Shown here in pieces: positions 35,665 to 41,095 of a DNA stretch of 64,000 nt (position 1 is its first letter; every line of letters begins with the position of its first letter). This stretch comes from Escherichia coli (lineage in GTDB: Bacteria > Pseudomonadota > Gammaproteobacteria > Enterobacterales > Enterobacteriaceae), in NCBI RefSeq assembly GCF_041248615.1, contig NZ_CP158426.1; one strand, given 5' to 3'. Position numbers and translations under genes: made by a program. Below the pieces are notes generated by a model. It made no database searches and had not been told where the DNA came from. It saw only the letters and a list, made by a program, of their open reading frames with translations.

Positions 35665-35867
35665 GGGGCAATATCCTCTTCTGTACGGGCTTCTTCAGCC
35701 TCAATCACCGGGATCAGTAACAACAGCCCGGAGGGCAGCACCGGCGTGATGGCCACGTGCGGATTGGCGGCAATAATCCGGGGATAGCCCAGCGGGTCAC
35801 CGTAGTACTGCCATGCCAGCGAATCCCAGCGCTCTCCGTCACGGGTAACATGTTCAAGAAACATCAC
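35652..35867 (-). CDS. Tail protein X-like small protein
   Basis: 71 aa between N-like and hub genes; overlapping starts and stops. Confidence 0.45.
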   Translation of the reverse strand: MMFLEHVTRDGERWDSLAWQYYGDPLGYPRIIAANPHVAITPVLPSGLLLLIPVIEAEEARTEEDIAPWLR

Positions 35868-36748
35868 ACACTCCTCGTCAGTATTCTGGCGGCCATTGCA
35901 CTTAATCCCGGAGACATGCGGTTGAATGCTGTGCCGGCGGCGTTAAGCTGCCCGGAAACGGTATCCAGAGCACCTGCAATATTTCTTTTGTCCACACCAC
36001 TCAGCGCAGACTGTGCCTGCTGTACATACGTGGCTGCTTCGCTGGCTGTTCTGGCCAGACTGATGGCATCGGGCATGGATTCAGAGAGTGCGTTAAACGC
36101 CGGAACACTTTTCCCCAGAGCCCCGGAGATATTACCCAGTCCGCTCATCAGCCCCGGCACACGGGTCAGTGCGACAACGGGGTTATCCTTCATTTTCTGT
36201 GTCACCCGAACGGCGCTGATAGTGGTCTGGAGTACAGACTGCGCCTGTTTCGCATAGTTGACGCCGTTGCGGATGAACTGCGCCACCCCTGAAGGTGAAG
36301 GAATGGCACCGGAGACCGCCCCGACACCCGGGAGCTTCGTGCGTATTGCCGGTGGTTGCAGAGGATTTTTCGGATCACCGGTGTATTCCCGGAGAGACAC
36401 GGTGGCACTGACAGCCAGCACGTTACCGGTGCTGTCTGTCTGCTCGCTGGTTGCGGTCACATCGGTAATCACGAACCAGCCACGATAGTCACCGTTGCCG
36501 AAGACCAGCGCCAGTGCCTGATGGGCTTTCATGGCTGTTCGCAGTCTCGCCAGCTCCACATCGGGTACACAATAATGCTGATGGAAGACCAGACTTATCT
36601 GGATTTCGTCCAGCCTGTCGCCGACGAACTGCAGGCCAGGCTTACCCCCGATGCGGGCATGCTCCGCATAATCGACGCCGGACGTGGCCTCGAAGCCGTC
36701 CCAGTAGGTAATCAGCTCAAACTCAATATCACCCAGTACGGCAAACAT
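35864..36748 (-). CDS. Tail protein (Mu N / DNA-circularisation family-like)
   Basis: 294 aa immediately downstream of tape measure. Confidence 0.55.
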   Translation of the reverse strand: MFAVLGDIEFELITYWDGFEATSGVDYAEHARIGGKPGLQFVGDRLDEIQISLVFHQHYCVPDVELARLRTAMKAHQALALVFGNGDYRGWFVITDVTATSEQTDSTGNVLAVSATVSLREYTGDPKNPLQPPAIRTKLPGVGAVSGAIPSPSGVAQFIRNGVNYAKQAQSVLQTTISAVRVTQKMKDNPVVALTRVPGLMSGLGNISGALGKSVPAFNALSESMPDAISLARTASEAATYVQQAQSALSGVDKRNIAGALDTVSGQLNAAGTAFNRMSPGLSAMAARILTRSV

Positions 36749-39699
36749 CAGCGGTACTCCTTACGTTGTTTCTGAGCCAGCAGACGCTCCAGCATTTTTT
36801 CCAGCTCATGCAGACTCATATTCAGGGCACCAGTCAGTCCTGCAGGCGCTGTGGTTTCCCTGCCATTGAGGAAAAACTGAGGATTAAAGCTGACCTGGAT
36901 ACCACCAGACGTTCCACCGCCGGTTGCAGCTGCACCACGGCCTGAATATCCGGCAGTCAGGATTTCAGGCGAGGGGATACGGGGAACATCCGGTGTCATC
37001 TCATTTGCCAGACGTTGCCCTGGTAAAATCGATGCCCGGGTGGGGAGCGGAATAGCGGGCATGGAAGACAAACTATTGATTACGGCTCCGATCGCATTTT
37101 TAGCAGACGACATAAACACATTGATATCGGGCAACGGCATACTGAAGCGAACACCTGAAGTGTTATCCCGTATTTCTGGCCCCTGAATGCTCACGGGCAT
37201 TCTGGGGAGCAGTTCACTGGCCATTCGCTGCCCGGCCAGAGCTGCAAGCGGAGTGGTCCGCTGCAGGCCAATGGCGGCCCCCTGCGCGATATTGTCACCA
37301 AAGCCCATAAACACGCGGCTCGGCGAATGAATGCCCAGCTTTTCGCTGAACCAGCCACTGATGCTGTCGCCCATTCCGGTTACACTGGATTTGAGCGACT
37401 CCCATTTGTTTTTGATACCGTTAATCAGACCATCGACAAGATGGCCACCGAAGTCGGTAAACTTTGCCGGCAGATCAACACCAAGATATTTCAGCGCAGC
37501 TGCAAAGGCTTTATAGAGCAGACCTGCCGGCGACCAGTTAATCAGCAGCTTACCAGTTCCCGCGATACCGCCGTTAAAGGCTTCCTGAATGTCAGCCCAG
37601 CACTGTTTAAACCAGCTACTGATGCTGTCACCCATTCCGGTTACACTGGATTTGAGCGACCCCCATTTGTTTTTGATACCGTTAATCAGACCGTCGATAA
37701 GATGACCACCGAAGTCGGTGAACTTTGCCGGCAGAGTAACGCCGAAATATTTCAGCGCAGCCGCAAAGGCTTTATAGAGCAGACCTGCCGGCGACCAGTT
37801 AATCAGCAGCTTACCAGTTCCCGCGATACCGCCGTTAAAGGCTTCCTGAATGTCAGCCCAGCGCTGTTTAAACCAGCCACTGACTGCCCCCCAGTTGCGG
37901 TAGATAAGGTAAGCTGCTGCCGCGACAGCGGTGATAACGAGACCGATGGGATTCATCATCAGCGCACGTCCAATCCAGAGAACAGCACGTCCGGCGAGCA
38001 TAATTCCGCGAACCAGCCCCCCGGAGAGCACGCCACTCAGTGTTCTGGCTCCTCTGGCGACGGCGCTAAATCCGGTCACCAGCCAGCGGAGCTTACCGCC
38101 TTGCCCCAGTGCGAGCGACAGACGAAGCCAGTTGGCCCGAAGTAAAACAGCATTTTTCCAGACACTTACAAAGGGGGAAATAAGGAGATTCAGCCCCAGT
38201 TTGAGACCAACAGTCGCTATCTTAATCGCAAGGAGCGCACTGATGAGCTTAAAAGCCCCACTGACAAATTGCGGGTGAGTCGCTACCCAGTGTTTTGCCC
38301 CCTGAATGAGTGGAAGCAGTTCCTGAGTCAAAGAAATAAAAGATGGAGCTAATTGATCGCCCAGCGTAATTGCCAGATCGCGACTGCTGACCATAAGTGT
38401 TTTAGTGGCTTCAAGGGGAGATTTCAGCCGCTGATCATAAGCACTGGCAAGCAAATCGTTATCCGCAGCCCTGAGAGCACCGGCACGGATCTCTCGATAT
38501 CTGTCCATGTTGGCCAGCATCGGGCGGATAAATGCCATGACCTGCATATCCGCGAACATATCGCCCAGACCAAAGTTTTTCGCCAGAGCCTGAAGTGCCT
38601 CATCTCTTGCCGTATCATTCTTTATTTTCATGGCTGATTTGAAGCCGGCCAGCGCTTCGGGGCTTTTGGCATTGAGGTAACGTTCTATAACACTCAACAT
38701 CCCTTCAATCGGAGAGATCCCCGCAGCTTTATAACTCGCAATAGATCCCTGCAAATCAATACCCAGATCAGCAAACTGTTTCTGAGTATCGCGGGCAAAA
38801 ATTTTGGTAAGAAAGTTTTTAAAATTATTAGCTGCTTCGTCGGTGGAACCTGCACCGATTTTTGCTATCTGGAGACTGGCCCCGATTTCAGCAACAGCCT
38901 CTTTTCCACTGGCAATACCCGCCATCATTGGGGCCAGGGACTGCATCCACTTGACCTGATCCGGGATTTCAAATGACCCCTGGTCACCGGCATAAGCCAT
39001 AATATTCTGAACGGCACCAAAATCTCTGGCCGCACCTTTCAGGGAGTTTTGCCAGACTGCGGCCACTTTTGCCCAGTCCTGAGCAGACGTGCGTGTTGCC
39101 GTTGCCGCGCGGGCAATATCCGGCATCAGAAAACCGATATCTGACACATTATCAATATTGTCGCTGATGAGTGAACCCACCGCCTCCTGCAGCTCATCCT
39201 GATACTGATTGTATTTAAGCGCCCAGCCTTTTATCTGTCCGGCAAGTGCATCCCGCGTTTTATTGTCATATTTTGCGGTGATCGACATATCAATCATTTT
39301 GTCCTGAAAAGACATGGACTGCTGAACGGCAGGGGAAACCGTATGATAAACAGTCTGTGCCATGCCATACGCTTCAATCCCCTGACCATACAGCGCCATG
39401 CGGTTAGCTTTCAGCGCATCACTGGTAGCGGATGCCGCTGACAGACGGCGCTGCTGGCGCTCAATTTGCTCCATGGTGCGGCTTACCCGCAGCAGCTCGC
39501 TGTTGAGATGCTGCATCCGGGAAGAACCCAGTTGACCATAACGTTCTGTTGCACGGGTTAAAGCGTTCTGACGTTCCTGCAGGCGGCGTGAGGTATCGCT
39601 CAGGGAATCAAGCGCACGGCGGGTACCGCTCATTGCAGAACGGAATGTGCTGCCAATCATCCCGCCGATAACAACGCCGACTGAAAACTGTCCCGACAT
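36748..39699 (-). CDS. Tail tape measure protein with internal 87-aa tandem duplication
   Basis: 983 aa, alpha-helical Gly/Ala-rich; 261 bp direct repeat (blocks at 37534 and 37795). Confidence 0.85.
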   Translation of the reverse strand: MSGQFSVGVVIGGMIGSTFRSAMSGTRRALDSLSDTSRRLQERQNALTRATERYGQLGSSRMQHLNSELLRVSRTMEQIERQQRRLSAASATSDALKANRMALYGQGIEAYGMAQTVYHTVSPAVQQSMSFQDKMIDMSITAKYDNKTRDALAGQIKGWALKYNQYQDELQEAVGSLISDNIDNVSDIGFLMPDIARAATATRTSAQDWAKVAAVWQNSLKGAARDFGAVQNIMAYAGDQGSFEIPDQVKWMQSLAPMMAGIASGKEAVAEIGASLQIAKIGAGSTDEAANNFKNFLTKIFARDTQKQFADLGIDLQGSIASYKAAGISPIEGMLSVIERYLNAKSPEALAGFKSAMKIKNDTARDEALQALAKNFGLGDMFADMQVMAFIRPMLANMDRYREIRAGALRAADNDLLASAYDQRLKSPLEATKTLMVSSRDLAITLGDQLAPSFISLTQELLPLIQGAKHWVATHPQFVSGAFKLISALLAIKIATVGLKLGLNLLISPFVSVWKNAVLLRANWLRLSLALGQGGKLRWLVTGFSAVARGARTLSGVLSGGLVRGIMLAGRAVLWIGRALMMNPIGLVITAVAAAAYLIYRNWGAVSGWFKQRWADIQEAFNGGIAGTGKLLINWSPAGLLYKAFAAALKYFGVTLPAKFTDFGGHLIDGLINGIKNKWGSLKSSVTGMGDSISSWFKQCWADIQEAFNGGIAGTGKLLINWSPAGLLYKAFAAALKYLGVDLPAKFTDFGGHLVDGLINGIKNKWESLKSSVTGMGDSISGWFSEKLGIHSPSRVFMGFGDNIAQGAAIGLQRTTPLAALAGQRMASELLPRMPVSIQGPEIRDNTSGVRFSMPLPDINVFMSSAKNAIGAVINSLSSMPAIPLPTRASILPGQRLANEMTPDVPRIPSPEILTAGYSGRGAAATGGGTSGGIQVSFNPQFFLNGRETTAPAGLTGALNMSLHELEKMLERLLAQKQRKEYR

Positions 39700-39774: not shown

Positions 39775-40032
39775 CTATGATTTGTCGCCGTACTCGCTTT
39801 TTATTTGCTCTTCAGCCTGCTCCAGCCACATCTCCAGATCGTCAGTATCGAGGGCATCAATCTCCCCCGGCTGAAACCGGAACCATCTCGCCAGCAGCCC
39901 CTGCGCCTGCGTCAGCGCCCTGGTTGCTCTCACCCATCCCCGTGATGAGCTGAAATCGTTTCTGTAACTGCAGGTAATCAGCCAGATCCATATTGTCGAG
40001 ATCTTCCGGGAGAAGACCAGTACTGCGGGCAA
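39775..40032 (-). CDS. Candidate frameshift extension of tail assembly chaperone (no ATG; TTG in ORF track)
   Basis: Overlaps 39857-40032 in the +1 frame relative to the chaperone and ends 82 nt past its stop. Confidence 0.35.
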   Translation of the reverse strand: MPAVLVFSRKISTIWIWLITCSYRNDFSSSRGWVRATRALTQAQGLLARWFRFQPGEIDALDTDDLEMWLEQAEEQIKSEYGDKS

Positions 40033-40192
40033 TCAGCGGTTCGTCCCAGTCTGCCGGGTTTTTGCTGATTTTGCGCACCTGCTTCAGGTCTTTTACCGTC
40101 AGGCGTTTCAGTTCAACCAGCTCAATTCTGGTGCCTGCAGCAGTGGTGAAGGGATAAGACAATTTAAAAGTATCGGATGGGGTCTGTGACAT
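39857..40192 (-). CDS. Tail assembly chaperone (upstream ORF of frameshift pair)
   Basis: 111 aa between tube and tape measure; acidic C-terminus; overlapping out-of-frame ORF follows. Confidence 0.6.
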   Translation of the reverse strand: MSQTPSDTFKLSYPFTTAAGTRIELVELKRLTVKDLKQVRKISKNPADWDEPLIARSTGLLPEDLDNMDLADYLQLQKRFQLITGMGESNQGADAGAGAAGEMVPVSAGGD

Positions 40193-40573: not shown

Positions 40574-41095
40574 TCAGCCCCCGATATTGATACGGTAGTC
40601 AGTCAGCTGATCAACGCCACCGACGCGGAAGATGTTGGCCAGATAGTCCAGTTGCAGCAGCTCTTCACCATCCAGTACCTGTCTGATATACGTGCAGGTG
40701 AAGCTACTGGAGAACTCGGCGTTCTCGTGCTGTTTGAACGTCCCCAGCGGGTTCTTCTTGAACATAATCGTCAGGAAGGTGACCAGCGGGATTTCGTCAA
40801 TCAGCCCCTGCGAGCTGTAGCGCTGGACGCTGGAACGACACTGCAGTGCCAGCGACCTGTACGGGTTCGCGGCAGACAGCATCGCATCGCGGTAAAAGCT
40901 GTTCCATTTGATTTCGCCTTCCAGTTTGTCAAAACCAGCCGGGAGTTCCACCTTACCCACCATCCCCAGCGCCTTGTGTTCCTGCATAATCATGGAGACA
41001 TCGGGGAGTTTAACTTCCTCAGCCCGTCCCAGCAGGTTAGTACCATCCAGATAGATGTTGGCATTCGTGATGCGGTTTATCTCAATCTTTGACAT
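40574..41095 (-). CDS. Tail tube protein (Mu M-like)
   Basis: 173 aa immediately after sheath gene, start/stop overlap. Confidence 0.8.
   Translation of the reverse strand: MSKIEINRITNANIYLDGTNLLGRAEEVKLPDVSMIMQEHKALGMVGKVELPAGFDKLEGEIKWNSFYRDAMLSAANPYRSLALQCRSSVQRYSSQGLIDEIPLVTFLTIMFKKNPLGTFKQHENAEFSSSFTCTYIRQVLDGEELLQLDYLANIFRVGGVDQLTDYRINIGG

Follow-up and report, generated by a model that had tools for sequence, protein, structure and literature searches.

A tandem duplication of 261 bp was found within the tail tape measure gene of an Escherichia coli prophage in the window (the whole 64,000-nucleotide stretch of DNA that was analysed). We consider, with a probability of roughly 0.75, that it represents an in-frame duplication of an 87-residue helical module in the ruler of a BcepMu-like prophage, variable in copy number by recombination, and that it lengthens the tail. 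That the length of the tape measure protein sets the length of the tail is textbook knowledge; the duplication alters no concept, and is an ordinary, well-understood variation and a fresh case of a known phenomenon. The coordinates of the features are given in Table 1.

Table 1. Features of the tape measure region and of the tandem array (positions in the window; aa, residues of the tape measure protein)
Feature	Position	Strand	Basis
Tail tape measure protein gene, intact ORF, 983 aa	36748..39699	-	ORF, Pfam, PHROG
gpE-type tail assembly chaperone, upstream of the tape measure gene	39857..40192	-	Pfam Phage_TAC_7, E=5.5e-21; WP_000084213.1
Tail tube protein, P2 FII type, subunit polymerising along the ruler	40574..41095	-	Pfam Phage_tube, E=2.9e-53; WP_162832341.1
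gpU-like tail protein, directly downstream of the tape measure gene	35864..36748	-	Pfam Phage_P2_GpU, E=3.2e-39
Hydrophobic helices just upstream of the array, about aa 478-508 and 579-600	37900..38268	-	Kyte-Doolittle scan
Conserved GIHSPSRVF motif right after the array, aa 789-797, family-wide anchor	37309..37335	-	Alignment
Whole tandem array, 2 x 261 bp + 13 nt	37349..37883	-	Tandem Repeats Finder
Unit A, promoter-proximal, aa 609-695, WFKQRWADIQ...DSISS	37615..37875	-	Translation
Unit B, distal, terminal type, aa 696-782, WFKQCWADIQ...DSISG	37354..37614	-	Translation
13-nt microhomology, upstream copy bounding the array	37871..37883	-	Sequence
13-nt microhomology, downstream copy	37349..37361	-	Sequence

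The identity of the gene as a tape measure gene, which an initial annotation made from the letters alone had proposed, was confirmed from the Pfam and PHROG matches and from its position between the genes for a gpE-type chaperone and gpU. The protein matched PF10145 (PhageMin_Tail) at aa 159-340 with E=2e-20 and 74 bits (cut-off, 33.2), phrog_28 with E=7.9e-135, and more than 15 further PHROG profiles annotated as 'tail length tape measure protein'; the PHROG families named for the protein are 28, 794, and 58, and the family type is TIGR01760. The source record carries it as WP_106631229.1 in NZ_LT599825.1. The order of the tail genes is sheath, tube, small ORF, gpE chaperone, tape measure, gpU, gpX, gpD, gpV, gpW, gpJ, gpI, and fibre, with the tape measure gene in the position expected of the family, after the tail assembly chaperone and ahead of the baseplate/hub genes. 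The AlphaFold2 model of the protein is helical nearly throughout to about aa 830, with long helices at aa 498-564 predicted with low confidence. S792 and P793 of the GIHSPSRVF motif are nearly invariant in an alignment of 89 sequences.

The label 'Mu-like', also given by the initial annotation, is acceptable. The prophage carries a DDE transposase gene and an ExeA/MuB-like ATPase gene (RefSeq annotation of the source record) together with Mu-type head genes (DUF935 portal, Mu F-like protein, and Mu G-like virion morphogenesis protein), and PhiKM, the named phage nearest to it, is classed in Bcepmuvirus; however, the tail module is of the contractile P2 type (tube, gpE chaperone, tape measure, gpU, gpX, and gpD). 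The tape measure of Burkholderia phage phiE255 is homologous to the window protein. Judged by gene content, the E. coli prophage is BcepMu-like and transposable, with a contractile tail of the P2 type.

A single array was detected with Tandem Repeats Finder (period, 261; 2.0 copies; 94% matches; no indels; score, 972), and the repeat search aligned positions 37349-37609 with 37610-37870 at 95% identity, with differences at 13 of 261 positions. A 261-nt match at this identity is far beyond chance. Since 261 nt equals 87 codons and the copies are arranged head to tail without indels, the frame is kept and the ORF is intact. Both units start with WFKQ(R/C)WADIQEAFNGG, and they differ at 6 of 87 residues. 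The array, with the inter-unit junction TCAGTAGCTGGTT, is bounded by two copies of the 13-mer TCAGTGGCTGGTT (codons S-G-W-F), which brackets the unit on both sides in single-copy alleles too. The tandem duplication and the two near-identical 87-aa units were thus found as initially described; the starts given there for the matching blocks (37534 and 37795) lie inside the copies, 261 nt apart and in register.

The array is located in the C-terminal third of the protein, past the hydrophobic helices and near the GIHSPSRVF region. The units were predicted with AlphaFold to be mainly helical (pLDDT about 65-83 for unit A). Aromatic residues stand at positions 1, 2, 6, 13, 27, 33, 36, 42, 43, 51, 54, and 70 of the unit; the spacing is irregular, and a fixed spacing of 11 or 18 residues was absent on reading of the sequence. 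A half-unit repeat within the 87-aa unit was also considered and rejected as not significant, 245 of 2000 shuffles attaining at least the observed score. No PDB chain was matched by sequence among the solved structures.

Among close relatives, the copy number forms a series in which one, two, and three copies correspond to proteins of 896, 983, and 1070 aa, respectively. Translation of the loci gave one copy for FCI23 and AVS0947, two for the window and EC958, and three for 10034292-3, A1.S1.65, and 2016C-3878. All of these strains have an identical tube protein, WP_162832341.1, and all but FCI23 an identical chaperone, WP_000084213.1; in FCI23 the chaperone gene is annotated as a pseudogene. 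One-copy alleles were seen in at least three complete genomes, FCI23, AVS0947, and TUM14759 among them, and more distant relatives with a single copy are Klebsiella phage KP12 and E. coli IAL7250 and GABEEC10 (821-825 aa) and phiE255 (870 aa). The comparison of tape measure lengths among related phages that was suggested with the initial annotation thus showed that the duplication is absent from some close and distant relatives, and it is not the case that both copies are present in all of them.

Two copies are the common state in this E. coli prophage group and are not particular to the window genome. Among 633 matching complete E. coli genomes, about 70% have two copies, about 19% three, and about 2% (close relatives) and 7% (more distant relatives) a single copy; these rough shares were estimated from samples taken at even intervals and from the number of records with less than 80% cover. 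In an even 60-row sample of 635 genomes, the match extended over 2952 bp in 41 rows and over 2691 bp in 2, and 11 rows were of the three-copy type. The two-copy probe was covered to less than 80% in 121 of the 633 records, and the sampled rows of that class were three-copy. A count of 269 obtained with a one-copy construct probe with 300-bp flanks was discarded, because overlapping pieces had been joined in the plus-strand matches. Counting of units by regular expression in 120 listed homologues missed variant units, so that only the length classes were used; some 983-aa rows were scored as one copy by this method. In the protein census, lengths of 896, 983, and 1070 aa recurred, and no longer protein headed the score list. 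We also observed an intact three-copy ORF that is carried in the annotation as two pseudogenes.

The unit belongs to a largely helical type of module that is widespread in tape measure proteins. It matched 623 cluster representatives at E<=1e-3, with 1-5 matched stretches in each, and the periods across the family are about 42-49, 76, 87, and 113 aa, those of about 42-49 aa being partial units. The median protein length was 867, 932, and 997 aa for one, two, and three copies, respectively; proteins with more units are longer, and the extra units are therefore not offset by losses elsewhere in the wider family.

By the divergence between its copies (dS, 0.126), the duplication is old; the dN/dS between them (0.28) indicates that both are under purifying selection. 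For comparison, the gene differs from that of EC958 at 0-6 positions per 246 nt over most of its length. The terminal unit is conserved across alleles, unit B departing by 1 nt from the single AVS0947 unit and by 3 nt from the final unit in three-copy alleles; the A-type units cluster together across alleles, and, with the outgroups as reference, A- and B-type units each show some ancestral and some derived states. FCI23 and AVS0947 each have a chimeric single unit, with an A-type 5' part and a B-type 3' part, a structure that a collapsed assembly would mimic. The rare close relatives with one copy seem to have been contracted secondarily through unequal crossover, and their state does not look ancestral. 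In 2016C-3878, unit 1 is 1 nt away from unit 2, a sign of recent re-duplication. Illegitimate recombination or slippage involving the two 13-nt microhomologies is the most likely source of the first duplication. Unequal homologous recombination between the 261-bp copies, for which the alleles give partial evidence, would then have moved the copy number up and down, and the outcome would be the natural series of one, two, and three copies in prophages whose tube and chaperone proteins are otherwise identical.

From the ruler model of lambda, T4, and TP901-1, we infer that the duplication would give a longer tail. Starting at the baseplate, the tube and sheath would grow along the tape measure and halt at the end of the ruler. 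At about 1.5-1.7 Å per residue, each extra unit would add about 13-15 nm, or about three tube/sheath discs; the tail of the window phage would be about 13 nm longer than those of one-copy relatives and about 13 nm shorter than those of three-copy relatives. In TP901-1, deletions removing 347 aa shortened the tail from 118 nm to 65 nm (about 1.5 Å per aa), and an insertion of 29% gave a tail 30% longer (PMC5099701). For the contractile phage T4, a tail length of about 1000 Å corresponds to 590 residues, and the setting of T4 length by the ruler is cited in the same source (PMC3185693); for the lambda ruler, Katsura and Hendrix are cited in PMC3271669. A literature search for tail lengths of PhiKM or of BcepMu-like E. 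coli phages found no usable publication.

We regard it as unlikely that the duplication is real without any effect on tail length, the variation in copy number being neutral repeat instability. The unit would then fold back, sit in the baseplate hub or the tube lumen, or form part of a C-terminal region with a role only once ejection has taken place. The location of the units beyond the hydrophobic helices and close to the conserved C-terminal region is compatible with this, as are the AlphaFold prediction of four short helices with breaks per unit instead of one long helix (moderate confidence, in a monomer model that is silent on the conformation inside the tube), the length of the unit, which is not a whole number of discs (about 3.2-3.7), and the finding that some internal changes of the TP901-1 tape measure affected infectivity more than morphology (PMC5099701). 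However, the TP901-1 tail was shortened in proportion to the residues lost whether the deletions lay in the repeat region or in the hydrophobic region (PMC5099701), and the purifying selection on both copies and the growth of protein length with unit number in the wider family also argue for an effect.

It is very improbable that the extra unit mainly tunes genome delivery, by giving a longer or better conduit through the periplasm and inner membrane, formed or extended after ejection by the hydrophobic and C-terminal part of the ruler. The units adjoin predicted membrane-type helices, and tape measure proteins have been reported to aid DNA transit and to form channel-like structures (PMC5099701; PMC8616913); however, the unit itself is not strongly hydrophobic (no 19-residue Kyte-Doolittle window within aa 609-782 attains a mean of 1.6), no link was found between the module and membrane insertion, and such a role is compatible with a ruler effect. 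An assembly artefact has a negligible probability as the source of the duplication or of the copy-number variation: assemblers can expand or collapse repeats of this length, PhiKM (the only close isolated phage) has a 100-N gap exactly in the repeat, many database proteins are truncated 'partial' entries, and a collapse would yield a chimeric single unit as in FCI23 and AVS0947, but the 13 differing positions make the copies easily distinguished in reads, the two-copy allele is present in several hundred complete genomes from many laboratories, including the PacBio-assembled EC958, about 120 complete genomes carry three-copy alleles, whose units differ from one another in a pattern particular to each, and one-copy alleles also come from complete genomes. 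With the same structure in hundreds of independent complete genomes, an artefact was rejected for the window duplication.

The practical value of the finding is modest. Public E. coli genomes hold a natural allelic series of 896, 983, and 1070 aa, with proteins of 821-825 aa slightly further off, the tube and chaperone being identical throughout. With this series the ruler rule could readily be tested on a contractile tail of the P2 type with regard to nanometres per residue and quantisation by discs; direct evidence for the rule has so far come mostly from siphophage mutants made by engineering. In the pandemic ST131 clone the prophage is widespread, and a tailocin role has been proposed there for its tail. 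The repeat is also a practical hazard, since it breaks or collapses assemblies, as in the PhiKM gap, and misleads automatic annotation. It is distinctly doubtful that the 87-aa module serves as an evolvable length dial whose units are gained and lost under selection; if it did, the length of the tail or the reach of the ejected tape measure would be matched to the thickness of the envelope, capsule, or O-antigen, and copy number would follow host lineage or surface type rather than drift.

The known rulers (lambda gpH, T4 gp29, and the TP901-1 tape measure protein) are likewise long, mostly helical, and encoded between chaperone and baseplate/hub genes, and in-frame deletions or duplications in them shift tail length proportionally (PMC5099701; PMC3271669; PMC3185693). 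Those results come from engineered mutants, mostly with non-contractile tails, whereas the present series consists of natural alleles from a prophage group with a P2-type contractile tail. The units described by Belcaid, Bergeron and Poisson in 2011 are likewise tandem tape measure repeats, whose number varies by duplication and loss and whose history can be reconstructed; however, they are of 11 or 18 aa, with Trp/Phe in the 11-aa repeats, whereas the present unit is of 87 aa with irregular aromatics.

Prophage Phi2 of EC958 (ST131) shares the two-copy array, with a tape measure gene 97.6% identical and identical tube and chaperone; a 246-nt patch of the gene is 23% divergent from that of the window. 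The EC958 copy was assigned to Phi2 because it is adjacent to the Phi2 invertible tail-fibre segment, and it lies at another chromosomal site than the window prophage, as expected of a transposable phage. Phi2 probably corresponds to 's2-ST131', the prophage with an R2-pyocin-like tail in Tantoso et al. (2022). The repeat is not mentioned in the papers on EC958 Phi2 and s2-ST131 ('tape measure' has 0 occurrences in PMC9205054). Farther away, phiE255 gp18 and RSA1 gpT of the BcepMu-like and P2-like phages of Burkholderia and Ralstonia have the same C-terminal layout, consisting of hydrophobic helices, the unit, and a GIHSPS-type motif. The phiE255 protein shows 55.5% identity across residues 2-256 of a query made up of the C-terminal 423 aa (tape measure aa 562-816), and the gene order is as in the window; it has a single unit in 870 aa, whereas the E. 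coli lineage has two or three units and an extra C-terminal segment of 71 aa.

The 261-bp tandem duplication that the initial annotation had claimed in the gene encoding the tape measure protein of the tail (TMP) was confirmed, and it is far beyond chance. Tandem Repeats Finder reported one array (period, 261; 2.0 copies; 94% matches; zero indels; score, 972), and the starts of the two matching blocks that had been picked out are 261 nt apart, both within the copies. The identity of the copies was 95% in a repeat search, 13 of 261 nt differing in the pairwise alignment. In the protein register, unit A (promoter-proximal) and unit B (distal) both start with WFKQ(R/C)WADIQEAFNGGIAGTGKLLINW; of their 87 residues, 6 are not shared.

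Features of the TMP gene and the surrounding prophage (window positions)
Feature	Window position	Strand	Position in protein, gene or record	Remark
TMP gene	36748-39699	-	983 aa	uninterrupted ORF
Tandem Repeats Finder array	37349-37883
Copies, repeat search	37349-37609; 37610-37870
Repeat unit 1 (A)	37875-37615	-	aa 609-695	protein register
Repeat unit 2 (B)	37614-37354	-	aa 696-782	protein register
Second, diverged duplication	36961-37314	-	aa 796-843; aa 861-913	two arms
71-aa segment	37021-37233		aa 823-893
Central TMP	about 38300-39350	-	aa about 115-470	includes PhageMin_Tail domain
Mosaic patch	37978-38223	-	gene nt 1477-1722	246 nt
Overlapping ORF, first	39857-40192	-		Phage_TAC_7, gpE-like
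Overlapping ORF, second	39775-40032	-		'GpE family phage tail protein' in other annotation
Recombinase pseudogene and fibre genes	about 28479-31850		NZ_LT599825.1 4544024-4547392	invertase family, frameshifted
Prophage end	about 27500-28400		NZ_LT599825.1 4543052-4543949	beside dinI and prfC

TMP matched Pfam PhageMin_Tail (E = 2e-20) and more than 15 PHROG families of 'tail length tape measure protein', and its gene neighbours encode a P2 FII-type tube protein, a gpE-type chaperone, gpU and gpD. Profile, gene order and helical character all agreed with the tape measure family, of which the gene is an ordinary member; by analogy, it would have the length-setting role. E. coli NRZ14408 (NZ_LT599825.1) was 100% identical to the window, and its RefSeq annotation contains a complete prophage with a DDE transposase, an ExeA-family (MuB-like) protein, repressor-type HTH proteins, a holin and a transglycosylase, followed by terminase, DUF935 portal and head morphogenesis genes, then P2-type tail and fibre genes. 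The nearest named phage is Escherichia phage PhiKM (97% identity across the TMP gene), which is classified in Bcepmuvirus. Because of this gene set and the placing of PhiKM, the term 'Mu-like' in the initial annotation can stand, with one reservation: the tail module is of the P2 kind. The two overlapping ORFs 5' of the TMP gene are arranged as one would expect of the E/E+E' chaperones of P2-type tails, a pair made by programmed -1 frameshift. The recombinase pseudogene adjoins a tail fibre gene, a fibre assembly gene and a fibre fragment in opposite orientation; in Phi2, the homologous prophage of EC958, a tail-fibre segment of 2067 bp is invertible (PMC4134206), and the fibre switch of the prophage in the window may be locked. 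A partial YadA C-terminal domain pseudogene and a sigma-factor-like HTH protein at the prophage end may be cargo or a remnant.

The ruler model, in which tape measure length sets tail length, is well established. A shorter gpH gave a proportionally shorter tail in lambda (summarised in PMC3271669), and contractile T4 is also placed under the model, its 590-residue tape measure needing to span about 1000 Å (PMC3185693). The TP901-1 tail of 118 nm became 65 nm long when 347 aa were removed (about 1.5 Å per residue); with a 29% insertion the tail was 30% longer, and deletions in the hydrophobic region counted towards length too (PMC5099701). By analogy, each 87-aa unit would add about 13-15 nm of tail at 1.5-1.7 Å per residue. 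With the disc rise of about 4 nm in P2/pyocin/T4-type tails, one unit would correspond to about three discs. The main alternative, that an extra unit is accommodated without tail lengthening, seems unlikely to us. That the unit serves mainly in a post-ejection conduit is possible but unsupported, and such a role would be compatible with the ruler effect. The two- and three-copy alleles recur in hundreds of complete genomes (PacBio-assembled EC958 among them), which excludes an assembly artefact as their source; such an artefact is a minor caveat for individual one-copy genomes only.

Matches to the TMP gene were found in 635 of 5,426 complete E. coli genomes with megablast. The presence of both copies in all relatives, which the initial annotation had named as counting against its reading, was not what we found (fetched loci translated): a single unit occurs in FCI23 and AVS0947 (896 aa), in the 821-825-aa proteins of more distant relatives (E. 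coli IAL7250, E. coli GABEEC10 and Klebsiella phage KP12), and in Burkholderia phage phiE255 (870 aa). Two copies (983 aa) are carried by the window and ST131 strain EC958, and three (1070 aa) by 10034292-3, A1.S1.65 and 2016C-3878. The tube protein (WP_162832341.1) is one accession across FCI23, AVS0947 and these two- and three-copy strains, as is the chaperone (WP_000084213.1) except in FCI23, where the annotation lists its gene as a pseudogene (internal stop). Among 60 evenly spaced megablast rows, the span was 2952 bp in 41 and 2691 bp in 2, and 11 belonged to the three-copy type; the two-copy probe had less than 80% cover in 121 of 633 records, the rows sampled from these being three-copy. 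The shares estimated from the samples (two copies, about 70%; three copies, about 19%; one copy, about 2% in close and about 7% in distant relatives) are heavily skewed by the abundance of ST131 genomes in the collection. The two-copy state is the common one among relatives, not an exceptional one. The 896-, 983- and 1070-aa classes also recur in a 5.8-billion-protein collection, where no protein longer than the three-copy class headed the score list. Owing to the repeat, the PhiKM record (PQ738613; locus L001, 4915-5014), the sole record of a close isolated phage, has a 100-N gap within it and a tape measure split into two CDS, and PGAP calls the three-copy gene of A1.S1.65 (NZ_CP146591; locus L006, 2501-5713) two 'incomplete' pseudogenes, the 1070-codon ORF being intact.

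With one unit as the query against the whole set of 1.84 billion cluster representatives, HMMER retrieved 623 proteins with E<=1e-3, or 330 with E<=1e-10, and 1-5 matched stretches per protein. The 95 near-full-length matches held one (59), two (26), three (8) or four (2) copies, and median protein length increased from 867 to 932 and 997 aa with one, two and three copies. Repeat periods across the family include about 42-49, 76, 87 and 113 aa; therefore, multiplication of this region is recurrent in the TMP family. A conserved GIHSPSRVF motif lies directly downstream of the multiplied region. Each unit was predicted with AlphaFold2 (89-sequence alignment) to be mostly helical (four helices; pLDDT, about 65-83), and no solved structure with a sequence match was found. 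The C-terminal part holds another tandem duplication, which is older and has diverged far more (BLOSUM62 local score between the arms, 58 vs 26.6 +/- 5.1 for shuffled sequences; 0 of 2000 shuffles reached 58). It matches the 71-aa segment, which is missing from the relatives IAL7250, GABEEC10 and KP12; the ruler is thus polymorphic in length at this point as well. The centre of TMP in GABEEC10, phage Phi06_2974 B and KP12 is replaced by a different, only distantly related sequence (megablast cover of the gene, just 43-54%), the N-terminal ~100 aa and the C-terminal half being still 85-90% identical; therefore, the tape measure is modular and mosaic.

In a variable-site table of 16 units, the last unit (B type) was near-constant in all alleles, and the A-type units, first or internal in position, grouped together. 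Compared with the single units of distant relatives, both types mix ancestral and derived states and have therefore both diverged since an old duplication. The synonymous divergence of the copies in the window is 0.126, compared with just 0-6 differing positions per 246 nt between the window and EC958 over most of the gene; thus, the duplication is older than the spread of the prophage group. Given a dN/dS of 0.28, both copies are under purifying selection. The single unit of the close one-copy alleles is a chimera (5' part, A type; 3' part, B type), the product expected from unequal crossover, so that these alleles would have contracted secondarily; an assembly with collapsed copies would give the same picture. 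Units 1 and 2 of 2016C-3878 are one nucleotide apart, which indicates a recent re-duplication. The 13-mer TCAGTGGCTGGTT is present at both array boundaries and also flanks the unit in one-copy genes, which points to recombination or slippage between these microhomologies as the origin of the first duplication. Directly upstream of the repeat, in a hydrophobic, low-confidence region, the mosaic patch has 57 differences (23%) from EC958, all other 246-nt blocks having 0-6, and looks like a recombination tract.

Judged by where it lies with respect to the invertible segment of Phi2, the ST131 homologue of the prophage is EC958 Phi2. Probably it is identical with 's2-ST131', a prophage of Tantoso et al. 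that has a pyocin-like tail; the papers on the two leave the TMP repeat unmentioned. The find is unsurprising, and the one-, two- and three-copy alleles form a tidy natural allelic series, handy for a simple experiment. Tape measure genes have already been described as carrying internal tandem duplications that vary in copy number (Belcaid et al. 2011), and the duplication in the window is a further example of this known variation, differing from that class in its unit of 87 aa without the 11-residue aromatic periodicity.
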